From contig QCCN01000007.1 in assembly GCA_003278925.1 (NCBI GenBank), positions 19,742 through 83,741 on the forward strand: a stretch of DNA of 64,000 nt, in the 5' to 3' direction. The notes under the pieces are model-generated. The model did not search any database. It worked only from the letters and a program-made list of their open reading frames with translations, and was not told where the DNA came from. Shown here piece by piece: positions 4,577 through 55,396 of this stretch; the first letter of the stretch is position 1, and every line of letters begins with the position of its first letter. The position numbers were made by a program, and so were the translations under genes. Origin of the DNA: Prochlorococcus sp. AG-347-L17 (lineage in GTDB: Bacteria; Cyanobacteriota; Cyanobacteriia; PCC-6307; Cyanobiaceae).

Positions 4577-5065
4577 ATTGTTATATTGAAAAATCAAAAT
4601 GCCAGACAAAGCTAAGACTGAAATAATAGAAAAAATTTGAATTAAATTTTTTAAAATAGGCTTTACCTCAATTGAGGCAATAAGTGATTCTTTTTCTTTC
4701 AGAGCTATTGGCTTTTCCCATACTTGACCGTCATACCAACCGGACTCCTCGTATTCCACTTTTTCAGATATTAGTCTATTAAATATATGATTCCAACCTA
4801 AATATAACCTTATAGAAATTAAAAGAGGTATTGATAAGCTGCAAAAAAAACTTAATAGAACATATCTTAAGAGAGATGTTTTGAAATATACACTTCCTGA
4901 AGAAATGACAAGAAATAGAATAAAAGCTCCTACCCAGAATTTTATCAATGCAAGAATTAGTGACTTTTTTGTTTTTGGCCAAGAAAAAATTTTAGATTTT
5001 GACAATTCTATAAATTCATTTGTTGGTTGTTGATCTCTGGGCACAGGACATTTGGATTCGATCAT
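4571..5065 (-). CDS. CGLD27/Ycf36-like (DUF1230) membrane protein
   Basis: CPVPRDQQP N-terminus and YEESGWYDGQVWEKP motif. Confidence 0.85.
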   Translation of the reverse strand: MIESKCPVPRDQQPTNEFIELSKSKIFSWPKTKKSLILALIKFWVGAFILFLVISSGSVYFKTSLLRYVLLSFFCSLSIPLLISIRLYLGWNHIFNRLISEKVEYEESGWYDGQVWEKPIALKEKESLIASIEVKPILKNLIQIFSIISVLALSGILIFQYNNF

Positions 5066-5073
5066 AAAAAAAA

Positions 5074-5418
5074 TTATGGAAATATAAGATTATCCCCATT
5101 ACTCCAGAATGATTCAAGGTCATAATATTTTCTTATTTCTGGTTGAAAAATATTTACTATCAAATCACCATAATCAAGTAAAGCCCATTTCGCTTCATTA
5201 ACCCCTTCTTTTCGTATCGGTTCAATTTTAGCTTTCTCTCTAAGCTCTCCCTCTACAGAGTTAGTTATAGATCTAACTTGTACATCAGATAATCCTTCTG
5301 CAATTAAAATCCATTCGCTTATAAATGATACTTTGTCAATTTTTATAAGTTTTATATCTTTTGCTTTTTTTTCATCACATGCTTTAGCTGCCATTAAAAC
5401 CAAACTTTTATTGTCCAT
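5074..5418 (-). CDS. rsfS: ribosome silencing factor (Iojap)
   Basis: AKACDEKKAKDI, W(A)LLDYGDLIVNIF, RKYYDLE motifs; start re-called to ATG at 5418 (MDNKSLV...). Confidence 0.92.
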   Translation of the reverse strand: MDNKSLVLMAAKACDEKKAKDIKLIKIDKVSFISEWILIAEGLSDVQVRSITNSVEGELREKAKIEPIRKEGVNEAKWALLDYGDLIVNIFQPEIRKYYDLESFWSNGDNLIFP

Positions 5419-6046
5419 AAACATTTTCACTTGAAACTGATTTTTCTGAACCTTCTTGCTGAGATAATTCTGCTCTTGCTTTTTCAGCACTTTTTCTTAA
5501 GGCCTCTAATCTATCTTCAAAGAAACTTCTTTTTTTCTTTTTTCGTGTCTTATCTATTAACTCCTTTAATGCTCCTCCAAGGCTTTTATAAGCATTTGGA
5601 ATGCTGTATCCAAACCTACAAGCAAGATCGATAGCTCTTTCATCTGCATAAATAGCATCTTGAAGCTTTTTTTCTGAATTATTTTTTAAATATAATCTAT
5701 ACCCAGCAAAACCTGATAAACCAAGAGCAAGTAATAAAAGTAAACCATCTTGCACCCACAACTCTCCAATTGCCCCCCCGAGACCTATTGCAAGAGCAGC
5801 CATTTCCCATCCATCTCTGGGAATTGTGTCGTTTTGAATTTTTCCAACCTCGTGCCAAAATAAGAGATTTCTATGGTCAATAGCGAAGTTATCCCATTCA
5901 TCTAAGTCAATTTGAATTTCTACTTCGTCACGACCTATTTCCTCAAGTGTTATTAAAGGTGGATCTATAGCCGCAGCAGCTTCAACAAATACCCAACTTT
6001 CATTTTCTGGAGGCAACAAACTTTTAAGTCGCTGAAGTTCGCTCAT
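5408..6046 (-). CDS. DUF3318 family membrane protein
   Basis: Cyanobacterial conserved pattern LLFWHEVG, GWEMAALAIGLGG, ADERAI. Confidence 0.75.
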   Translation of the reverse strand: MSELQRLKSLLPPENESWVFVEAAAAIDPPLITLEEIGRDEVEIQIDLDEWDNFAIDHRNLLFWHEVGKIQNDTIPRDGWEMAALAIGLGGAIGELWVQDGLLLLLALGLSGFAGYRLYLKNNSEKKLQDAIYADERAIDLACRFGYSIPNAYKSLGGALKELIDKTRKKKKRSFFEDRLEALRKSAEKARAELSQQEGSEKSVSSENVYGQ

Positions 6047-6154
6047 AAAAAATTAATTTCTTTCAATACTATAGAAACAAATGTTGCTTTTCAAGTAACT
6101 TGATTAACATCTGATGATTTATAAGTAGCATGTGATAAATGAAGGTTTTCAATT

Positions 6155-9100
6155 ATGCCTCAAAGAGGTGATCTTAAAAAAATTCTTATTTTAGGTTCGG
6201 GACCAATAGTTATAGGACAAGCATGCGAATTTGATTACTCTGGTACTCAAGCTTGCAAAGCTTTAAGAAACGCTGGTTATGAAATTATCTTGATAAACTC
6301 AAATCCAGCATCAATAATGACTGATCCTGAGATCGCAAGCAAAACATATATTGAACCATTGACTCCTGAAATAGTTTCTCAGATCATTTTAAAAGAAAAA
6401 CCTGATGCCATTCTTCCCACTATGGGAGGTCAAACAGCTTTAAATCTTGCCGTTAGATTATCAGAGTCAGATTTTTTAAAACAAAATAATATTGAATTAA
6501 TTGGTGCTGATTTAAGAGCTATTAATAAAGCTGAAGATAGAAAATTGTTTAAAGAATCGATGGAGAAAATAAATGTAAATGTTTGTCCATCTGGTATTGC
6601 ATCTAACCTGAATGAAGCTAAAGAGGTATTAAAAAAAATTAGTTCTTATCCTCTAATAATAAGGCCTGCATTTACATTAGGTGGTGTAGGAGGTGGAATT
6701 GCTTTTAACCTCGAAGAATTTGTCGATTTATGTAAATCAGGTTTAGAGGAAAGTCCAAGTAATCAAATATTGATTGAAAAATCACTTATTGGATGGAAGG
6801 AGTTTGAACTAGAGGTAATGAGAGATACTGCTGACAATGTGGTAATAGTTTGCAGTATTGAAAATTTAGACCCAATGGGTGTCCACACTGGAGATTCGAT
6901 TACTGTAGCTCCTGCACAGACCTTAACAGATAAGGAGTATCAGAGGTTACGGGATTTGTCATTGAAGATTATTAGAGAGGTGGGAGTTGAAACAGGAGGA
7001 AGTAATATTCAATTTGCAATAAATCCATCTAATGGAGAAGTAATTGTTATAGAAATGAATCCTCGTGTAAGTAGATCTTCTGCCTTGGCAAGTAAAGCAA
7101 CTGGATTCCCTATAGCTAAGATTGCAGCTTTATTATCTGTTGGCTATACACTTGATGAGATTATTAATGACATTACAAAAAAAACACCTGCATGTTTTGA
7201 GCCCTCAATTGATTACGTAGTTACTAAGATCCCAAGATTTGCTTTTGAAAAGTTTAAAGGCTCATCTAATACTTTAAGCACTGCTATGAAATCTGTTGGT
7301 GAGTCAATGGCAATCGGTCGTTCTTTTGAAGAATCATTTCAGAAAGCATTAAGGTCATTAGAAGTAGGTGTTTTTGGATGGGAATGTGATTCACAAGATG
7401 AATTTAAAGATGAAAGTCAAATTAAAAATAGTTTAAGAAACCCTACATCTGAAAGAATTCTCCTGATTAAAAAAGCAATGAAGCTTGGGAAGACTGATAA
7501 TTATATTCAAGAAGTTACAAATATAGATTTATGGTTTATCGAAAAATTACGTAATATCTTTAATTTTGAAAATGATTTTTTGAAAGATAAGGAACTCTAC
7601 ACTCTAGATAGGGACTTGATGTTACATGCTAAACAATTAGGCTTTTCAGATCAACAGATTGCAAAGTTAACTAATTCTGAGTTTTTTGAAGTAAGAAGAT
7701 ATAGAAAAAAACTTAATATAATTCCAATTTATAAAACCGTTGACACTTGTTCAGCAGAATTCTCATCCTCAACTCCCTATCATTATTCAACTTACGAAGA
7801 ATCTTTCATTAATTTTAATTCTCAAATTTTTGATAGCGAGATTTCAGAAAAAAGTAAATCAAAAAAAATTATGATTTTAGGAGGAGGTCCAAACAGAATT
7901 GGTCAGGGAATAGAATTTGATTACTGTTGTTGTCATGCATCATATCAAGCTTCTACAAATGGTTATAAAACAATAATGGTTAATAGTAACCCTGAAACTG
8001 TATCAACAGATTATGATACTAGCGATATTTTATATTTTGAGCCTGTAACTTTGGAGGATGTGCTTAACATAATAGAAGCTGAAAATCCTTATGGTTTGAT
8101 TGTTCAATTTGGAGGTCAAACTCCACTGAAATTATCTTTACCTTTATTTGAATGGCTTAAATCTAATGATGGGATCAGAACTGGATCAAAAATTCTAGGG
8201 ACTTCTCCAATATCTATCGATTTAGCAGAAGATAGAGAGGAATTTACAAAAATTCTTGAAGAATTAAGTATTAGACAACCTTTAAACGGTATTGCACGTA
8301 ATCAAAATGAAGCAGAAATAGTAGCAAAAAATATAGGATTCCCCTTGGTTGTAAGACCTTCATATGTTTTAGGCGGAAGGGCAATGGAAATTGTTAAAGA
8401 TGAGAATGAATTATCGAGATATATTTCTGAAGCAGTTAAGGTATCACCTGATCATCCAATCCTTCTTGATCAATATTTGAATAATGCAATCGAGATAGAT
8501 GTTGATGCTTTATGCGATTCAGAGGGTTCGGTTGTAATTGCTGGTCTAATGGAACATGTGGAACCTGCAGGAATTCATTCAGGAGATTCAGCTTGTTGCT
8601 TACCATCCATTTCTCTTTCAAAATCCACAATTGAAAATGTAAGGAACTGGACTAAATTAATTGCACAAAGATTAAATGTTGTTGGTTTAATTAATTTGCA
8701 ATTTGCAGTAATAAATACAAATAATAAAGAAAATAAATTATTTATTCTCGAAGCAAATCCAAGAGCATCCAGGACAGTTCCATTTGTTTCAAAAGCCATA
8801 GGTAAACCAGTTGCAAAATTAGCTACTAAGTTAATGCAAGGTTTTACATTAGAAGATCTTAATTTCACAGAAGAATTTTCTCCAAAATTTCAGGCAGTAA
8901 AAGAGGCCGTTTTACCTTTTAAAAGATTTCCTGGTTCTGATACATTACTTGGTCCTGAAATGAGATCTACTGGAGAAGTAATGGGTTTAGCTAAAGATTT
9001 TGGAATTGCCTATGCGAAGTCGGAATTGGCAGCAGGTAATGGTGTTCCTTCAGAAGGAGTTGCTTTTTTATCTACAAATGATTTAGATAAAAAAAATCTT

Positions 9101-9451
9101 GAGGAAGTTGCTAGAGAACTTTTGAATTTAGGATTTAAATTAATCGCAACAAAAGGTACAGCTTCATATTTGGTGAATTTAGGAATTCAAGTTGAAGAAG
9201 TGTTAAAAGTTCATGAAGGAAGACCAAATATTGAGGACCTAATTCGTTCGGGGCTTGTTCAATTAATAATTAATACTCCAATTGGTTCACAAGCTCTTCA
9301 CGATGATGCTTATTTAAGACGTGCCGCTTTAGAATATAATATCCCAACTTTTACAACTATTCCTGGAGCAAATGCTGCCATTAAGGCGATCAAAGCTTTG
9401 CAATGCAATAAGATTAATACTTACTCTTTACAAGAAATCCATAATTATTAA
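6155..9451 (+). CDS. carB: carbamoyl-phosphate synthase large subunit
   Basis: [17 protein letters not shown], duplicated ATP-grasp domains, GVHTGDS, C-terminal MGS domain. Confidence 0.99.
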
Positions 9452-9455
9452 AATT

Positions 9456-9674
9456 TTATTCTAAGTTATTTAGTTTTTCTCTTAATTGATTAACTAAATA
9501 GTTTCTACTAATTGAAATTAATTGGAGAGTATCTTGATGCATTTTAAGTTGTGTCTCCGCTATTTGTAGTACTTTTATAGATTCTTTTATTTCATTAGAA
9601 AGTTCATTTATTAAATATTTTTTCCCTTCAAAGGTTAAAACTGGATTCGCAGAATCATTTGTGTTTTCGCTCAT
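9456..9674 (-). CDS. small conserved coiled-coil protein (DUF6447-like)
   Basis: 72 aa; VLTFEGKKYLINELS...QLKMH pattern; convergent with carB. Confidence 0.65.
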   Translation of the reverse strand: MSENTNDSANPVLTFEGKKYLINELSNEIKESIKVLQIAETQLKMHQDTLQLISISRNYLVNQLREKLNNLE

Positions 9675-9717
9675 GGATTTACTTTTTTAATAAATATTTT
9701 TAATAAATAAAATAGAA

Positions 9718-11424
9718 CTATAATTTTTTAATCAATTGTTTTTCACATAATTCTTTATAAATTCCAGGTTTATTTATTAAATCAATGTGTTTTCCAACTT
9801 CAATAATTTTACCTTTATCGAAAACAACTATTTCATTAGCCTCTTGAGTAGTGGCCAATCTATGAGCAATTACAATAACTGTTCTATCTTTCATAGCTCT
9901 ATTAAGTCCTTTTTGTACTTCAGATTCAGATTCTGCATCTAATGCACTTGTGGCCTCATCTAAAAGGAGAATTGAGGGGTTCCCAAGTATTGCTCTTGCA
10001 ATTGCTATCCTCTGTATCTGGCCACCTGAGAAATTTGATCCTCTTTCAGATATTTCAGTTTCATATTTCTCAGGAAGCTTTTGAATGAAGTTGTGAGCGT
10101 TTGCTTTTCTTGCTGATTCTATAACCTCTTCTTTGGTGAAATTTCTCCCCATTCTTATTACATCAATAATTGTTCCTGAAAACAAAAAAGGCTGTTGTTG
10201 TACTAATGCAATGTTTTTTCTAATATCTTTTGTATTTAATATTTTGAGATTTTTATCATCTATAAAAATGTCTCCATTATTTGGAGTTATAAACTTTAAT
10301 ATCAAAGCCAACATTGTACTTTTACCAGCTCCAGAAGCTCCAACAAATGCTGTGACTTCACCTCTTTTAATTTCTAAATTGATATTTTTAAGTACTTGAT
10401 TATCTTTTTCGTAAGCGAAATTTACTTTCTTGAAACTTATCTTGCCTTCACAATTGGATATCCTTTGTAAATTTTCTTTACCATCTTCGACAGGTTCTTG
10501 ATTTATATTCTTCAACCTTTTTATTGAGGCTTCTGCCTGTTTATAGTCATTAAAATTTGTGCTTACATGGCTTATTGGATCAATAAGCATTAATATTGCT
10601 GCAAAAAAACTACTAAATTCTTCGCTTGTTAGAAGGCCTTGATTTATTCTTGCAGCTCCTAAACCTAATATTGCTAATATTCCAAATGCTTCAACAAATC
10701 CTACAACTGGATGTTGAAATGCAAGTAGTTTTAATGTTTTATATTTTGCTTGTTTATTTGTCCTTAATCTTTTATAAAATCTATTCTCAATCCAATTTTC
10801 TGCAGCAAAAGCTCTTATCGTGGACATTCCATTTATAGATTCACCTATTAATCCTGCTAAATTACTTGTTGATTCTTGACTTTTTTCGGATGCAATTAAA
10901 ACTCTTCTTCCAAAACTGTTAACTGAAAGAATAATCAATGGTGCTAAAACGAATGTTGACACTGTTAGTGACCAGTCTAAATAAAACATGTAGATTATTA
11001 CCGCTAACAACTGTAAGGTGCATGGAATAGTATCTTGAGCTGTTTTATAAATAACTTCGCTTACCCTGTCTGCATCTTCTGTAAGTCTATATGTGATGTC
11101 CCCAGCTGAAATACTTTCAACCGAATTCATCTTTATTTTTTGAATTCTTCTAAATAAATTTCCTCTCATCACTTCACTAATTTCTAAAGATGGTTTTGCT
11201 ATGAATACATCTTGTCCAAATTGAGCAGTTTTCTGAACTAAAAATACAAATAAAGACTTAATTATTATGCTAGAAACTTTTGAAAGATCACCTGACCCAA
11301 TTGATGGGATTAAGTTTCCAGCTAAAAAAGCTAATAAAGGCCAACAAGCTACGTAAATGAGCATGCATATAAAACCCTTGATAAACCTATTTGAATATGG
11401 TCTGACTGGTGGTATTAGTCTCAA
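9718..11424 (-). CDS. ABC transporter fused permease/ATPase (MsbA-like exporter)
   Basis: N-terminal TM domain; GASGAGKS, FSGGQ, ILLLDEAT, IAHR. Confidence 0.92.
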   Translation of the reverse strand: MRLIPPVRPYSNRFIKGFICMLIYVACWPLLAFLAGNLIPSIGSGDLSKVSSIIIKSLFVFLVQKTAQFGQDVFIAKPSLEISEVMRGNLFRRIQKIKMNSVESISAGDITYRLTEDADRVSEVIYKTAQDTIPCTLQLLAVIIYMFYLDWSLTVSTFVLAPLIILSVNSFGRRVLIASEKSQESTSNLAGLIGESINGMSTIRAFAAENWIENRFYKRLRTNKQAKYKTLKLLAFQHPVVGFVEAFGILAILGLGAARINQGLLTSEEFSSFFAAILMLIDPISHVSTNFNDYKQAEASIKRLKNINQEPVEDGKENLQRISNCEGKISFKKVNFAYEKDNQVLKNINLEIKRGEVTAFVGASGAGKSTMLALILKFITPNNGDIFIDDKNLKILNTKDIRKNIALVQQQPFLFSGTIIDVIRMGRNFTKEEVIESARKANAHNFIQKLPEKYETEISERGSNFSGGQIQRIAIARAILGNPSILLLDEATSALDAESESEVQKGLNRAMKDRTVIVIAHRLATTQEANEIVVFDKGKIIEVGKHIDLINKPGIYKELCEKQLIKKL

Positions 11425-11481
11425 GTTATTATATATTTAATTGTTTATCCTACTTTATCAATATCTTTGGGTATAAAAACA

Positions 11482-11658
11482 ATGAAATTGGATCAATTCT
11501 TAAAATGGAAAAATTTGGTATCTTCTGGTGGCGAAGCAAAAATTTTTATTAAATCGGGTTCTGTTAAGGTTAATGGTGTAATTGAGACTAGGAGAGGAAG
11601 GAAGTTAGATAAGGGAGATAAAGTAATATTTCTAAAAAATGAATTAATTTTTGAATAG
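11482..11658 (+). CDS. S4-domain RNA-binding protein (YaaA-like)
   Basis: MKLDQFLKW...SGGEAK...VKVNG.ETRRGRKL; start re-called to ATG 11482. Confidence 0.88.
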   Translation: MKLDQFLKWKNLVSSGGEAKIFIKSGSVKVNGVIETRRGRKLDKGDKVIFLKNELIFE

Positions 11659-11710
11659 TTAGCTTATTCAACTCACTTTGTATTAGTATGTTTTTCTTGG
11701 AGATAGTATT

Positions 11711-12436
11711 TTGAGAAAATCTGTAATTGCTGGTAATTGGAAAATGCACATGACTTGTGCTGATGCTAAATCATATCTAGAAAAGTTTATTCCCTTAATA
11801 AAAAACATAAAAAACGATCGTAAAATCGTTATTGCTCCACCTTTTACAGCTATTTCAACCTTTTCGGATCATTCTGATTTTGAATATTTAGATATTTCTA
11901 GTCAAAATATTCATTGGGAAGATCAAGGGGCATTTACTGCAGAAATATCTCCAAAAATGCTTCTTGAACATGGTGTCGCATATGCAATCGTTGGTCATAG
12001 TGAACCAAGGAAATATTTTAGTGAAAGTGATGAACAAATTAATAAAAGAGCAGTTTTTGCACAATCTAGTGGACTTACTCCAATAGTTTGTGTAGGAGAA
12101 ACATTAGAACAAAGAGAAAGAGGAGAAGCTGTTAGAGTTATTACTAGACAGGTCGAACAAGGATTAGAAAATACAGATCCAGCTAATTTAATTGTTGCCT
12201 ATGAACCAATATGGGCTATTGGCACTGGTAAAACATGTGAGGCAGAAGACGCTAATAAGATATGTTCTTTGATTCGGAAATTAATAGGTTTTGATGATGT
12301 AATTATTCAATATGGTGGATCTGTTAAACCTAATAATATTGACGAAATAATGTCAATGAGTGATATAGATGGGGTGTTAGTTGGAGGCGCTTCATTAGAT
12401 CCGAATAGTTTTGCGAGAATTGCAAATTATCAATAA
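11711..12436 (+). CDS. tpiA: triosephosphate isomerase
   Basis: [29 protein letters not shown]. Confidence 0.98.
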
Positions 12437-13265
12437 GACGAATCCATGGCCAAAAGGGTGGGGCCAAAAAACTTCAATTATGGGAGTTATTAATTTAACT
12501 CCTGATTCATTTAGTGATGGTGGGGAATTAAACTCCTCAAAAAAAGTTATAGATCAAGTAGACCATTTCTTGAGCAATGGTGTTGATGTAATTGATCTTG
12601 GTGCTCAAAGTACGAGACCTGGAGCTGAAGAAGTTGGATCTAGTAAAGAAATAAAAAGATTGATCCCATATCTAAAATTAATAAAATCTGAATTTCCAGA
12701 TGTTTTGATTTCTATTGATACTTTTAATTCTGAAGTGGCTTACGAAGCTCTTTTAAATGGTGCTAACTGGATAAATGATGTCACGGGAGGAAGAAGAGAT
12801 ATAAAAATTTTGGATGTTGTATCAAAATTCAACTGTCCATTTGTGATAACTCATAGTCGTGGTAATAGTCAAAATATGAATCAACTCTCTAATTACCAGA
12901 ATGTATTGAGTGATGTTAAGTGCTCGCTTGATAATTTAATAAAAAATGCTTTAGAAAAAAATATATCTGAAAAAAATATAATAGTTGATCCTGGAATTGG
13001 GTTTTCAAAGGATATCATTCATAATTTGGAAATCTTGAGAAACTTAGATGTATTTAAAAAATGGAATTTGCCAATTTTGATAGGTGCATCTAGGAAGAGA
13101 TTTATCGGAGAAATTTTGAATGAGAAAAATCCCAAAGAAAGAGATATAGGAACACTCGCAATAAGTTGTCTTTGTTCTCAATTTAATATTGACATTGTGA
13201 GGGTTCACAACGTCAAACTAAATTATCAAATCCTTAAAGTAGCTGATAAGATTTACAGAAAATGA
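12411..13265 (+). CDS. folP: dihydropteroate synthase
   Basis: [33 protein letters not shown]; exact start uncertain. Confidence 0.97.
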
Positions 13266-13273
13266 TAAATTAA

Positions 13274-16200
13274 TTATTCTTTAACTCCTTCGATTTTATC
13301 CTCTACCTCTTGGTATAGTTCTTTCAACTGTTCAATATTCTCATCTGAAGTTTCCCAATATCCCCTACCATTAACTTCTAGCAAAGTTCCAACAATTCTT
13401 CTGAAACTATTAGGATTAAGATCCATTAATCTTTTCCTCATCTCTTCGTCATTTATAAATGTTTCATTAGTTTCTTCATATACAAAATTATCTACTTGAC
13501 CACTTGTCGCACTCCAACCAAGAGTGTAATTAAGTCTGTTAGAAAGTTCTCTAACTCCTTCATAACCAGATTTAAGCATACCTTCATACCACTTAGGATT
13601 TAAAAGTTTTGTCCTTGAGTCTAATCTGATGGTTTCTCCAAGTGTTCTAACTTGAGCATTAGAAGTAGTAGTGTCTGCTATATAGCTACTTGGTTCTTTC
13701 CCATCATCTCTAAGTGTCTTAATCAATTTTGTTGGATCTGAATCAAAATAATGACTTACATCTGTTAATGAAATCTCTGAGGAATCAAGGTTTTGAAATG
13801 TAACATCTGCTGTTTTCATTACTGACTCAAATACCTCTCTTTTTTGATTCATTTCACCTGGATTATCAGCATTAAAAGCATATGTTTTGCGTGATAAATA
13901 CATTTCTTGTAATTCATTTTCTTCCTCCCAAGTTGAGTTTTCTACAGCTAAATTAACATTTGAACTGTAGCTTCCACTTGCGTTAGAGAATACTCTCGCT
14001 GAAGCTTCTCTTATAGAGGTACCTTCTTTTTCTGCTTGTTCTAGTGAATGTTTCCTTACAAAATTAGATTCCAATGGTTCATCAGCCTCAGCCGCTAATT
14101 TGACCGCCTGATCTATTAAGGCCATCTGATTTATAAATAGATCTCTAAAAACTCCTGAGCAGTTAACGACTACATCTATTCTTGGCCTACCTAATTCTTC
14201 TAAAGGGATTAATTCTAATTTGTTGATTCTTCCCACAGAATCTGGTTTTGGTTTTACACCGACAAACCATAAGATTTGAGCAAGTGATTCTCCATAAGTT
14301 TTGATATTATCAGTACCCCATAAAACACAGGCAATTGTTTCAGGCCAAGTTCCTTGCTCTTCTTTTTGTCTTTCAATTAATTTGTCAACAACTGACTTTG
14401 CAGCAGCTACAGCTGCTGTAGTAGGGATTGATTGTGGATCAAGTGCATGGATATTTTTACCACTTGGTAAAACACCTGGATTTCTTATGGGATCTCCACC
14501 TGGTCCAGGTAAAACATAATTTCCATCTAATGCTTTAATGAGGCTATCCATTTCTTTATCAGCACAGACCTGTTCCAAACAGAAAAGTAAGTAATCAAAT
14601 AATTTATTTAATTCCTTCTGATTAACTTCATTAAATCCATTTAAGGTACAGACCCTTAGCCAAGGGGTAGGTAAATTCAAACCAAATACTTTAAGAAAGT
14701 CAAACAATTTGGAAAGAAGTGATTTTTCTAAATAAACTCTGCCATCAACAATTTTTAAAGAGTTGACCATTGCAAAAATAGACTCTCTTGCTGTCTTTAT
14801 GATTTTTTCATTTAGCTCTACAAATTTGAGTTCACCTTTATTATTGCCATCATAAATTTGTTCAATAGTTAGGCCCATGGATTCAGCTAGCAATCCAGGA
14901 AGAGATCTTAATCCCTCTTGCTCTCTTTCTAATGATGCAATATTTACAAGTGTTGCAACAGCTTCTTCTGCTGTTGGGGCTTCTCCAATAGTATGAAGAC
15001 CGCAAGGTAATAATCTACTTTCAATTTCCATCAACTGTTTATAGACATTCCCAACAAATAAATCTCTTTCATCTATTGAGAGTTCTTCTACATCTTTTGA
15101 AGGGAGCTCAACATCCTTGTCAAGATTACATTGTTTAGAAGTCTCAACTATCGCATTAACAATTTGAATACCCCTGCTATTTTCTCTTAATTGTTGATAA
15201 GAACCAACGAGTTCACTTAGTTCTTTAAGTCCTTTGTAGAGTCCTGCATTTTCCGCTGGAGGAGTCAGATAACTAATAGTTGAAGCATATCCTCTTCTCT
15301 TCGCAATTGTTGCTTCAGATGGATTATTCGCAGCATAGTAATACAAATTAGGCAATGATCCAATGAGAGAATCCGGATAGCAAGTTTCACTCATGCCCAT
15401 CTGTTTACCAGGCATAAATTCAAGTGATCCATGAGTTCCAAAATGAAGAACAGCATCAGCTCCCCAGATTTTTTCTACATAGGTGTAATAAGCGGCAAAA
15501 CCATGATGAGGACTAGCACTTCTTGAATAAAGTAACCTCATTGGATCACCTTCATAACCGAATGTAGGTTGAACACCTATAAAAACATTTCCAAAATGTT
15601 TTCCATAAATAAGAAGGTTTTGTCCGTCACTATTGAGGTTTCCAGGAGGTTTACCCCAATTCTCTTCAAGTCTTTGAGAATATGGTGTGAACTCTTCGTA
15701 TTCTTTTACTGACATCTTATGAGCAATATTTAACTCTGGAGAGCCATCCATCGCTTCAGGGTTGTTAATTACTTTTTCCATTAATTCTTTTGAATTACTT
15801 GGAAGTTCATCTATTTGATATCCTTTTGATTTCATTTCAAGAAGTACTCTATAAATTGAACCAAAAACATTCAAGTATGCTGCCGTTCCAACATTTCCTT
15901 TGTCTGGTGGAAAACTAAATACTGTGATGGCTAATTTTTTTTCCTTTCTTTGTTTAACTCTTAAAGTTGACCATTTTATTGCTCTTTCAGCTATTACATC
16001 AACACGATCTTGGAGCGTATGCGCCTTACCTGTAGCATCATCACGACCTGAGAGAATAATAGGTTCAATAGCACCATCAAGCTCTGGAATTGCAATCTGT
16101 AGTGCTACCTGAACAGGGTGTAAACCTAGATCACTATCTTCCCATTCTTGTGTGGTTTGGAAAACTAATGGAAGTGCAACCATATAGGGTCTGTTTAACC

Positions 16201-17284
16201 TTTTTAGGGCTTCAATAGCTTTAGGATGATCTTGTCTTGCTGGCCCACCAACTAGTGCAAATCCTGTTAGAGATACAACTCCATCTACTATAGGTTGATC
16301 TTTATTTATGGAATCATAATAAAATTCATTAACTGGTTTAGAAAAATCTAAACCTCCACAAAAGATAGGTAGAACTCTCGCACCTCTGTATTCTAATTCT
16401 TGAATAACAGCAACGTAATGAGCATCATCTCCCGTAACGATATGACTCCTTTGAAGCACTAGGCCTATTGTTGGAGTTTTGTCATCTTTAGGATTTATAT
16501 CTTTCCTGTTATTTTCCCAATTTTGATATTCTTTAAGACTTTCAAACATGCAAGGAGCAAGAGGATGCCAAATTCCTAAATCTGGAAATGTTTCAGGGTC
16601 TTGAATTTTGAATTCTTCTATTTGATCCTTTATTATTTCTGAAACAGCGTACTTTTCAGAAATCATTAACAAGAAGTTTTTTAGGTTCTCAGTTGTACCA
16701 CCTAACCAGTACTGAAAACTTAGAATAAATGTTCTAGCATCTTGAGCTTTTTCTACTGGTAGATATTTAAGTATTGAAGGTAGTGTATTTAATAACTTCA
16801 ACATTGAATCTTGGAAACTTGCTCCATCAGATTCTTTTTTCTTTTTTATTAAATCTCCAATAATACTTTTAGATTGACCAAGTTGGGCCATACTAAATGA
16901 ACCTAGCTTATTTAATCTCATTACCTCTGGCATGGAGGGGAAAACAATTGACGCTTTAAGTTTGTCCTTAAATGGAGATACCGCATCAACAACTTTTTGA
17001 GCAAGGTCTTCAATGAATATTAGAGAAGCAACGAATATATCTGCATTAGCTATATCTTCTTTAAAATCTTCAAAATTACTATCATTCCTAAGTTCTTCGA
17101 TAAGATAGCCGCTAAGGTCTATACCTATTGGCCCATTCATCTTATTTATTGACTTTGCAGCTTCTGTTAAGGAATTTTGGTATTGTGGCTCAAGGACAAC
17201 ATAAACTGCTTTTATTACAACTTTGTGTTTGTTATCCTCAACAGGAGATACTCTGCGGTTTGCTGAGCGGACCTGCGTAAACAT
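13274..17284 (-). CDS. chlH: magnesium chelatase subunit H
   Basis: 1336 aa; [38 protein letters not shown]. Confidence 0.97.
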
Positions 17285-17386
17285 TGATTTTCTTTAAGTA
17301 TTTCTACCAGCCTACGAATGAAAAGACGTTATTGTGTGCAATATAAATAGCGTGTAACAACCTTTAAAAAAAAATTTTTTAAAAAA

Positions 17387-18235
17387 ATGATTGAAAATTC
17401 CAAAAAACCCATACCAGTACTAGTATCCGGAGCTTTAGGCAGAATGGGTAGTGAAGTTGTTAATACTGTATTAAATTCTACAGATTGTGAACTTGTTGCA
17501 GCAATCGACATAAACGAAAAGAACAATGGTTCAAATATTTCTACCTTATTGAAGGTAAAAGATTGTGATGTTTTTGTTTCAAATGATTTTGAAGGAACTT
17601 TATGTTCTGTTAGTCAAAATTATAGAAATGAAAATATCAAACCTGTACTGGTTGATTTTACTCATCCTGATTCTGTATATGAAAATACCAGGTCAGCTAT
17701 TGCATATGGTGTATCACCAGTTGTAGGAACTACAGGTCTAAGCCCTTCGCAAATACAAGATTTGTCTGTTTTTGCTCAGAAAGCATCTGTTGGTTGTGCA
17801 ATAATTCCTAATTTTTCAGTCGGTATGGTTCTTCTTCAGCAGGCGGCATCTGTAGCTGCAAGGTTTTACGACAATATTGAATTAATTGAGATGCATCATA
17901 ATCAAAAAGCTGATTCTCCTAGTGGGACGTGTATAAAAACTGCAGAAATGATTGAAGAATATCCAAAGAAATTTAATCAGAATTTAGTAAAGGAGTCTGA
18001 GTCATTGAAAGGTGTACGCGGTGGGCTCAGAGATTCAGGAATCAATATACATTCTGTACGATTACCAGGATTACTCGCTCATCAGTTAGTAATTATGGGA
18101 TCTCCAGGTGAAACTTACACAATTAAACATGACACTATTGATAGAAAGGCATATATGCCAGGAGTTTTACAGGCTATTAAAAAAATTGGTAATTATGAAA
18201 CTTTAGTTTACGGACTTGAAAAATTGATTTTTTAA
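17387..18235 (+). CDS. dapB: 4-hydroxy-tetrahydrodipicolinate reductase
   Basis: [30 protein letters not shown]. Confidence 0.97.
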
Positions 18236-53613: not shown

Positions 53614-53625
53614 CTGTATCGATAA

Positions 53626-53672
53626 TCTTATATAAGACTTTAAACTAGTCTATATATAATTCTTATATAAGA
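53626..53672 (+). repeat. 47-bp structured element, copy 1
   Basis: TCTTATATAAGA CT TTAAACT AGTCT ATATATAAT TCTTATATAAGA. Confidence 0.85.
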
Positions 53673-53706
53673 CAGATAATAATCCTACAAAAGTAATTAA
53701 TGTTGT

Positions 53707-53967
53707 ATGATAATGATCATGTTCAACCTGCTATCTCTACTTTTATCTTCAGTGCTGTGGGTACAAGTACCTCAGTGGTCAGATGATTGGTCAAAATGTG
53801 CTGTTGACATACCAGATGCATCCTGTCACTGGTATATAACTGCACCTGATAATACTTTTGGTGATGGATTTGATTGGGCTAGCGCTCCTTGGTTTGATGC
53901 TAACGGATTAAGTGATGTCCCTAGTATTGATAAACAAACTGCAATTGAAAAACTTCAATCTAAGTAG
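53707..53967 (+). CDS. small exported Trp/Asp/Cys-rich protein
   Basis: Hydrophobic N-terminus then VQVPQWSDDWSKCAVDIPDASCHWY...FDWASAPWFDANG; true start may be one of the later in-frame ATGs. Confidence 0.8.
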   Translation: MIMIMFNLLSLLLSSVLWVQVPQWSDDWSKCAVDIPDASCHWYITAPDNTFGDGFDWASAPWFDANGLSDVPSIDKQTAIEKLQSK

Positions 53968-53987
53968 TACTGTCTTTAAGGCAGTAC
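53967..53987 (+). terminator. hairpin immediately after the stop codon
   Basis: GTACTGTC-TTTAA-GGCAGTAC (one G-U pair); no strong U-tract. Confidence 0.5.
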
Positions 53988-54154
53988 GGGTAAACATAAA
54001 AACCCTTGATATCAAGACTTTTTAAGCGTTATTAATTTCTTGGACAATGAAAGGACATAATTTGTGGATTTATTATTCAATTTTAGATTTTTCCAAGGTA
54101 ATCAACAGTTTGGGTATGAATCATCCAAATTGATAAATTAATTTATCTTACATA

Positions 54155-54201
54155 TCTTTTTTAAGACTATATAATAGACTTAATATAAGTCTCATATAAG
54201 A
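54155..54201 (-). repeat. 47-bp structured element, copy 2 (inverted)
   Basis: Reverse complement TCTTATATGAGA CT TATATTA AGTCT ATTATATAG TCTTAAAAAAGA. Confidence 0.85.
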
Positions 54202-54329
54202 AGTGCTATACAACGAATTTTATTCTTTAAAGGTATATTCTATTTTTATTTCATTTATACATAATTATTGTTTCCATATATTTGAATAATAATAATTGAC
54301 AAAAATGAGAAATTTTAGATTTGCGGCTA

Positions 54330-54376
54330 TCTTACATGAGACTTTTAGTTAGACTTAAAATTAGTCTTATTTGAGA
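54330..54376 (-). repeat. 47-bp structured element, copy 3 (inverted)
   Basis: Reverse complement TCTCAAATAAGA CT AATTTTA AGTCT AACTAAAAG TCTCATGTAAGA. Confidence 0.85.
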
Positions 54377-54385
54377 ATTAAAATA

Positions 54386-55396
54386 CTATTTTCTATATAA
54401 ATTTTTTAGCAATTGATACGCTTCATTTAATTTTCTCATTTGATCTGTAGATCCTCCAGCATCTGGATGCGTCTCTAAGGCGATTGATTTATAGGCCTCC
54501 CTAATTTTACGGAAAGTATGAGCGGAACCTGCGGATGTTGATAAATTCAATAATTTAAGTGCTCCATGTACTGTCATTGTTGAGTCCAAAGTGTCAAATG
54601 AATTTGATCTATTATTTCGCTTAAATCTACTTATAAACCTTCTCATAAGTGTTGGTATTCTATTTATAAGGTCTGATGTAGCAAAAGGGTCTTCTAAAAC
54701 GCCAATCATTAATAAAACAATTTCAAGGGATGGATTTTTCTTTATCCAGAATGGGCATAATTCTGACATTAATTTATTGGCTGCACTCCACGTAAAGGGT
54801 AGATTTTCAGTTCCATCAAGATTTGGCCATATATCCATTTCAAACCAATCCATCGAAGCTTCTACTACATGATCATTAGGAACTGATCCATATAAGGTTT
54901 TCCAATGACTAATTAACTCAATTCGACATTTTATTAATTCAGTTTCTTTAATTGTATTAATTTGAATATCATAAATATTCTCCTTTAATTTTTCACTATT
55001 AATACTTCTTCTTAGATTCCTTACTTTTTTTTCAACAAAATTGGGAAGGCTTATATTTAAGTTGGCTTTTTCTTTAGATTGATTGTTATTTGTAAATCTT
55101 TTATTCAAAGATATCTCATTAACATTTTTTTTTACGTCTGATTTAATTAATACCAATGCAGTATCTTCATCAATATTTAAATTTTCTTTATTATTATTCT
55201 CGTTAAAGTCTATTTCTTGCTGTTGGTTCTTAGGTAGTAAATCATCTTCTTGAAGAAGTTCTTTAAGTATCTTTTCTATTACAGGTCCTCTTGCTCTAAA
55301 ACCCCACTCTTTTCGTAATTGATCAAACCTGGAAATTAGTTCCTCAGGTAAATCAATTGAAATTCTTTTTGTATTTGAATTTTCAGGAATATTCAA
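54386..55396 (-). CDS. RHH (CopG-like) + C-terminal J-domain fusion protein
   Basis: N-terminal KRISIDLPEELISRFDQLRKEWG; C-terminal REAYKSIALETHPDAGGSTDQMRKLNEAYQLL with intact HPD. Confidence 0.85.
   Translation of the reverse strand: MNIPENSNTKRISIDLPEELISRFDQLRKEWGFRARGPVIEKILKELLQEDDLLPKNQQQEIDFNENNNKENLNIDEDTALVLIKSDVKKNVNEISLNKRFTNNNQSKEKANLNISLPNFVEKKVRNLRRSINSEKLKENIYDIQINTIKETELIKCRIELISHWKTLYGSVPNDHVVEASMDWFEMDIWPNLDGTENLPFTWSAANKLMSELCPFWIKKNPSLEIVLLMIGVLEDPFATSDLINRIPTLMRRFISRFKRNNRSNSFDTLDSTMTVHGALKLLNLSTSAGSAHTFRKIREAYKSIALETHPDAGGSTDQMRKLNEAYQLLKNLYRK

Follow-up and report, generated by a model that had tools for sequence, protein, structure and literature searches.

What reads a 47-bp DNA element that occurs three times around one small gene of Prochlorococcus, and what does the element do there? 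The question arises in a 64,000-nucleotide stretch of the genome of Prochlorococcus sp. AG-347-L17 (contig QCCN01000007.1; 'the window', to which coordinates below refer unless another genome is named). This is low-GC DNA (31% GC, as is the genome) with the gene order rpsR, rpmG, pheT, a small open reading frame, RHH-J and metH. An initial annotation, made from the letters of the window, had described the three copies and proposed them as operators for the adjacent RHH-J protein, controlling the small exported-protein gene and possibly two minus-strand transcripts.

All three copies are where that annotation had placed them, and each matches the 47-bp pattern with 0 mismatches. Copy 1 (E1; 53626–53672, plus strand) reads TCT-N6-AGACT-N7-AGTCT-N7-ATTCT-N6-AGA and lies between the pheT stop codon, 12 nt away, and the gene for the small exported protein (53719–53967, plus strand; 82 amino acids). 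Copy 2 (E2; 54155–54201, minus strand) occupies an ORF-free gap between convergent genes. Copy 3 (E3; 54330–54376, minus strand), 175 bp from E2, sits 9 nt past the stop codon (54386–54388) of the RHH-J gene (54386–55396, minus strand). The element is nearly palindromic, and E1 matches the minus strand too (2 mismatches). Boxes fall at element positions 1, 10, 22, 34 and 45, and the spacers between them diverge. The consensus gains one more box at position −10, 10 nt upstream, which is GTCT in low-light Prochlorococcus and Synechococcus and has degenerated to GTAT in high-light strains; in the window this extra box is GTAT at 53616–53619 (plus strand) before E1, with ATAC as its equivalent at 54208–54211 for E2 and 54383–54386 for E3.

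Even with 3 mismatches allowed, the 1.52-Mb genome contains no match besides these three copies, nor did an nhmmer profile made from them recover another. The core AGACT-N7-AGTCT has five sites genome-wide, three of them in this locus, and of the 76 AGACT or AGTCT words in the window nine lie inside these 800 bp. No match arose in 100 dinucleotide-preserving shuffles.

Conservation was followed with a box-only pattern, TCT-N6-AGACT-N7-AGTCT-N7-AKTCT-N6-AGA. Of the 151 genomes scanned in the genus (MED4, AS9601, MIT9215 and MIT9515 among them), 123 had a match at no more than one mismatch, against 0 for a control pattern, and 47 of the 50 high-quality ones have the pattern at the orthologous locus. 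Copies in the genus always form one cluster of two to four with the same spacings, about 175 and about 530 bp. Alignment of 30 orthologous loci showed the boxes fixed and the spacers free; conserved boxes in both orientations at 12-bp spacing, with diverging spacers, as first described from the three copies, are seen across the 151 genomes. One genome carries four arrays (G061:C2:233629-234552). There a stretch of about 175 bp, made up of an array and its spacer, is repeated in tandem as an extra unit; this duplication suggests that an array and the roughly 128 bp downstream of it form a functional unit.

Box triplets at 12-bp spacing recur past the RHH-J stop codon in low-light Prochlorococcus, in which the other neighbour is often a rumA-like gene and not pheT or the small gene, and in marine Synechococcus (50–60% GC), in which the module lies between apcD and RHH-J. 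One array copy stands beside the RHH-J stop in both groups, in the same place as E3. A de novo count of 5-mers at spacing 12 in the Synechococcus flanks put AGACT on top, with 13 occurrences against 5 for the runner-up. Outside the genus, about 30 of about 44 matches of a three-box pattern in the family (Cyanobiaceae) were within 1.6 kb of an RHH-J gene, and with up to four mismatches allowed the full 47-bp architecture is recognizable in almost all lineages. Among the matches listed from 185,579 species genomes, the exact pattern was confined to cyanobacteria, and IMG/VR held no cyanophage copy. In the orthologous gap of a MIT9313-like genome (G195:C1), a run of about 17 C was seen about 600 bp beyond the RHH-J stop.

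Such conservation could reflect recognition of the element as DNA or as RNA. We tested 181 distinct copies for covariation under three pairing models: each outer palindrome paired with itself, one arm paired with the other, and AGACT-N7-AGTCT. No variable or spacer position covaried under any of them, with z-scores near 0. Spacers that do not covary mean that the boxes act through their sequence, most likely as sites for a protein on double-stranded DNA, and the presence of the box in both orientations on one strand fits recognition of duplex DNA. The simplest reading would be that a symmetric, oligomerizing protein recognizes the fixed boxes.

That the element might instead act as RNA, as a hairpin, terminator or 3′-untranslated motif of the transcripts containing it, is suggested by the mutual complementarity of its outer arms and by a 12-bp stem at −9.2 kcal/mol that E1 can form. 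The missing covariation speaks against this, as does the folding of the three window copies relative to shuffles, which was not consistently better (z = −2.1, −1.5 and 0.0), E2 and E3 folding no better than the shuffled sequences; E1, moreover, lies upstream of the mapped transcription start site (TSS) described below, and an Rfam search at E up to 1 with this region and seven related loci returned nothing relevant. RNA and DNA hairpin models of the element were therefore rejected on covariation and inconsistent folds, and we consider an RNA role for the arrays, being largely refuted, very improbable. Still less credence goes to chance similarity in AT-rich DNA or to relics of a small mobile repeat. 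A genome of 31% GC and the extra tandem unit of G061 might be cited for these, but the shuffles and the control patterns (0 in 151 genomes) refute a chance origin, and position is kept across genomes of 31–60% GC. The spacers differ between copies, unlike those of recent mobile copies, neither near-identical dispersed copies nor an associated transposase was seen, and IMG/VR is without a match.

We then asked what the arrays flank. In MED4, in which PMM0871 is pheT, PMM0872 the small protein and PMM0873 RHH-J, a TSS has been mapped at 828957 on the plus strand with 4,821 to 17,983 reads, compared with 100–500 for its neighbours (PMC5607370, supplementary tables 8–10). It lies one base inside the PMM0872 start codon and is the only TSS listed at this place downstream of E1; the PMM0873 TSS is 17 nt upstream of its own start, and the MED4 tables list none between PMM0872 and PMM0873 and none near E2 or E3 (PMC5607370). 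The TSS of PMM0872 is among the strongest in that data set. In the window, TATGAT at 53706–53711 (plus strand; TATAAT in MED4) stands 7 nt before the ATG at 53719, and TATGAT or TATAAT before the ATG is conserved in the 30-locus alignment. By homology with MED4, this hexamer would be the −10 box of a very strong promoter, from which a leaderless transcript would start at about 53719. For the small gene itself, ATG 53719 is the most likely start, rather than 53707.

The MED4 TSS is 48 nt downstream of the element, and on the same homology E1 would occupy about −93 to −47 of the small-protein transcript and would not overlie its promoter. This bears on two of the original proposals. The TATAAT within E1 (53655–53660) is indeed present but is not the promoter mapped in MED4. 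Control of the exported-protein gene keeps the support of one copy upstream, although that copy does not overlap the mapped promoter. The suggested minus-strand transcripts found no counterpart, in that no TSS is reported near copies 2 and 3 in MED4. A PMM0872-type gene occurs at this locus only in high-light Prochlorococcus, with no homologue at the low-light Prochlorococcus or Synechococcus loci.

Directly after the small gene, beginning at the last base of its stop codon, lies a predicted RNA hairpin, GTACTGTCTTTAAGGCAGTAC (53967–53987, plus strand), that is unique in the genome and conserved family-wide with compensatory changes; it takes the form GCGTACCTGTGTCTACAGCAGGTACGC in Synechococcus and GCGTAACTGTCTATATAGCAGTTACGC in low-light strains. 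Unlike the arrays, it passes the test of base-pair covariation, with 43 double-change cells against 18.5 in shuffles (0 of 500 shuffles reached the observed value) and with 88% pairing against 23–42% when the partners were slid. A closing U·G pair, present in 27 of 37 sequences, fits the plus strand only, and the fold is more stable on that strand (−11.5 kcal/mol) than on the other (−7.0 kcal/mol). The hairpin is absent from genera without RHH-J. On its 3′ side, a TGGAC-N6-AGGAC block (54041–54056, plus strand) is kept from high-light Prochlorococcus to Synechococcus, in which it reads CTTGGAC...TGGAC.

Taken together, the locus forms a non-coding module that is conserved and single-copy, convergent with RHH-J and bracketed by arrays; in high-light strains it additionally carries the PMM0872 coding sequence. 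It was single-copy in all eight Synechococcus genomes with a match. Among the entries listed for Synechococcus CC9605 in situ, there was no non-coding RNA TSS in the orthologous gap. Given this, and the MED4 tables for E2 and E3, regulatory output is on record for E1 in high-light strains only. Outside those strains, no fixed spacing from array to promoter or from array to hairpin was found.

The protein encoded beside the arrays starts with an RHH-like domain and ends with a J domain bearing the HPD motif; a disordered linker and an all-alpha domain lie between the two. Its J domain is a true one: the Pfam DnaJ match scores 28.5 bits against a threshold of 27.8, HPD is invariant, and Foldseek aligns the domain with the Tim14 J domain (TM 0.72, probability 1.00). 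The all-alpha domain (residues 151–261, pLDDT about 90) matched none of the solved structures. For the N-terminus, Pfam RHH_1 gives E = 0.031 in this protein, below the Pfam threshold, while many homologues carry PF01402 and a profile matches the RHH domain of NikR (E about 0.012); a monomer model has two helices (pLDDT 60–73) and no strand, as expected of a monomer. RHH-J is a core gene of Cyanobiaceae, found in 112 of 121 genomes and 32 of 36 genera. A class-wide sample placed it in 17 of 17 Cyanobiaceae genomes and in 0 of 184 genomes of other families. It has been lost in the four genera from which it is missing (g5, g10, g14 and g25).

The arrays, however, extend beyond the protein. The initial annotation had suggested co-occurrence with RHH-J orthologues as a check; the two are tightly syntenic where both exist, but the complete 47-bp element is also found in at least six genera that have neither RHH-J nor any RHH domain like it, namely g5 of Cyanobiaceae and a Phormidesmis/Myxacorys-like group. 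The g5 copy adjoins the mnmE stop codon. The Phormidesmis/Myxacorys-like group belongs to another family, in which at least seven genera have good copies, at no more than one control match per genome. In one Phormidesmis-like genome (G426:C1:1509123-1512316), five arrays are distributed one per intergenic spacer among clustered small genes, 85–145 nt ahead of the next start codon, and other Phormidesmis-like genomes have box runs longer than 150 bp. There are two to five arrays per genome, and they are not at multiple loci. The G426 cluster includes genes for an HPF/RaiA-like protein and for small proteins of membrane or secreted type, with a RelA/SpoT gene adjoining, and may be a stress regulon under the same factor. 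Searches of the array-bearing genomes without RHH-J, using an RHH-domain profile and the full RHH-J protein, found no relative; the matches were J-domain proteins or RHH proteins of toxin–antitoxin type only, the latter away from the arrays. No protein recurs beside the arrays of the Phormidesmis-like and g5 loci.

Operators of RHH proteins (omega, ParG, MetJ and Arc, for example) typically consist of short boxes, some direct and some inverted. Omega of pSM19035 reads 7-bp heptads, ParG of TP228 reads ACTC boxes, MetJ reads metboxes (AGACGTCT) and P22 Arc reads TAGA half-sites. By analogy, we regard these box arrays as the nearest mechanistic relatives of the element. Like them, it repeats boxes directly and inverted at a fixed spacing, an arrangement that in the known systems is read cooperatively; its box contains the AGAC/GTCT core of the metbox, and a gene with an RHH-like N-terminus adjoins it. 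Unlike them, it has a spacing of 12 bp (7–11 bp in the known systems), covers 47–60 bp, lies at the 3′ end of the RHH gene and not in its promoter, and exists in genomes without that RHH protein. Of the features of an RHH operator, box repetition at fixed spacing with free spacers is seen here, and co-occurrence with the protein is not.

Are the arrays, then, operators of the adjacent RHH-J, its dimers binding the boxes cooperatively to control the exported-protein gene and possible minus-strand transcripts, with a J domain that may recruit DnaK? We hold this to be possible, though rather unlikely. In its favour, an array stands beside the RHH-J stop in nearly every genus of the family while the other neighbour varies (pheT, apcD or a rumA-like gene); the style of the array resembles RHH operators; the N-terminus is RHH-like by the PF01402 matches of homologues, the NikR match and the two-helix model; and a predicted β-strand motif, R-I/F-S/T-x-D/E-L-P, is conserved family-wide, as are the boxes. 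Against it, the RHH-J gene has no boxes in its own 5′ region, the RHH_1 match falls below threshold in this protein, the third predicted DNA-facing residue is acidic, and it is the hairpin, not the arrays, that vanishes with RHH-J. Most directly, the element occurs in genomes without RHH-J, so the protein cannot be the general binder and stays a candidate in picocyanobacteria. The operator proposal thus stood as to operator-like arrays and synteny, and gave way as to a general link with this protein. On these sequence comparisons, RHH-J is probably not the sole binder of the arrays, if it is a binder at all.

A different reading makes the arrays structural or boundary sites: a protein filament on 12-bp-periodic boxes might serve as a roadblock or insulator between packed or convergent units, or as a centromere-like or nucleoid-organizing site. 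Arrays usually begin 2–43 nt past a stop codon, as E1 does after pheT, E3 after RHH-J, the g5 copy after mnmE and each of the five G426 arrays after a gene, a placement that would suit a 3′-end or boundary role; E2 and E3 lie between convergent units, and Phormidesmis-like genomes have long box runs. To our knowledge cyanobacteria lack Rho, which also counts for a boundary role. With two to five arrays per genome, however, they are not a general termination system, and E1 is placed as expected of an upstream promoter element. There is also no GC or AT skew switch at the locus. We judge a purely structural role improbable. The MED4 locus (828863–829611 of 1,657,990) lies almost exactly at the midpoint of the chromosome. 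A replication terminus or dif site was dropped as a candidate, since neither GC nor AT skew, cumulated along the window's own 93-kb contig, shows a switch.

The explanation that we favour, and consider somewhat better than even, is that the arrays are an old cyanobacterial DNA element, read by protein, that sets the output of the conserved unit beside RHH-J, with a binder other than RHH-J alone. Five to six AGTCT/AGACT boxes, facing either way and placed roughly every 12 bp, would make up each array, and they would be recognized on double-stranded DNA by a sequence-specific and probably oligomeric protein. Because arrays exist in cyanobacteria without RHH-J, a binder must exist there too, and RHH-J can at most bind, or serve as a cofactor, in its own lineage; in our main explanation, the binder is a trans-acting protein older and more widespread than RHH-J. 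In picocyanobacteria, two to four arrays would bracket one single-copy transcription unit arranged tail-to-tail with the RHH-J gene. In high-light Prochlorococcus, a strong leaderless promoter below E1 would yield an exported-protein mRNA ending in the conserved hairpin, and E2 and E3 would mark the far end of the unit, beside the RHH-J stop codon. Binding at E1 could then activate or repress from upstream, while E2 and E3 might support cooperative binding, looping or a barrier, or may drive minus-strand transcripts seen only under particular conditions. The arrays are best read as controlling or delimiting this unit. Counting against this explanation are array-to-promoter distances that follow no fixed value beyond MED4, TSS tables with no entry near E2 or E3, and searches that turned up no candidate protein.

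A more specific version would involve the J domain. DNA binding or transcription is coupled to the chaperone system elsewhere: E. coli CbpA is a DNA-binding J-domain protein, and HspR/HAIR uses DnaK as a co-repressor. These parallels are relevant only if RHH-J binds DNA, and they are partial, as CbpA, which lacks an RHH domain, recognizes curved DNA rather than a specific sequence, HspR is of the MerR type, and neither has box arrays like these. RHH-J could be a DNA-tethered J-protein, its RHH dimers sitting on the AGTCT arrays and its J domain loading DnaK there, such that free DnaK, titrated by unfolded proteins, would act as the switch for the neighbouring unit (PMM0872 mRNA in high-light strains, hairpin RNA otherwise). 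We rate this as a long shot. If true, marine picocyanobacteria would have a transcription switch of their own that is coupled to chaperones, added to an older system of arrays and regulator that persists without RHH-J in Phormidesmis-like cyanobacteria.

Biological precedents come from the same organisms. CGRE1 is a conserved palindrome of 21–22 bp, with GTTA/GTTG flanks and a GTGATCAC-like centre, that starts 55–57 nt upstream of the TSS of several yfr2 genes, whose small transcripts are strongly regulated in Prochlorococcus and Synechococcus, and it occurs in picocyanobacteria only (PMC6191309). It was found by promoter comparison, and its binder, the GntR regulator PMM1637 of Yfr2 in marine picocyanobacteria, was found by DNA pull-down (PMC6191309). 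In Synechococcus and low-light Prochlorococcus, the promoter of the extremely abundant Yfr103 transcript has an imperfect palindrome (−29 to −58) with no known binder; Yfr103 is about 300 nt long and has up to seven paralogues per genome (PMC5069720). The arrays resemble CGRE1 as a conserved palindromic element upstream of a small transcript, and resemble the Yfr103 palindrome as a palindromic element upstream of a very abundant transcript. We accordingly suggest these two, by analogy, as the nearest biological precedents. Identity with CGRE1/PMM1637 was rejected because the sequences are unrelated, and identity with Yfr103 was rejected on copy number, the module here being single-copy in every Synechococcus tested.

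A search of the literature on PMM0872, PMM0873 and the box motif found nothing relevant. The element is real and strongly and deeply conserved, and no description of it came to light. Transcription factors are very few in Prochlorococcus, and only a few binding sites are known for them. Here a long, sharply defined element is kept from Prochlorococcus at 31% GC to Synechococcus and Cyanobium at 50–60% GC and to Phormidesmis-like filamentous cyanobacteria. It adjoins one of the strongest mapped promoters of MED4, and it adjoins the gene of an uncharacterized protein, confined to picocyanobacteria, in which a domain of DNA-binding type is combined with a J domain of the kind that recruits chaperones. 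The arrays are a potential bait for finding the missing cyanobacterial regulator and an entry point to RHH-J, and a conserved non-coding module of arrays, hairpin and GGAC block is now defined for functional study.
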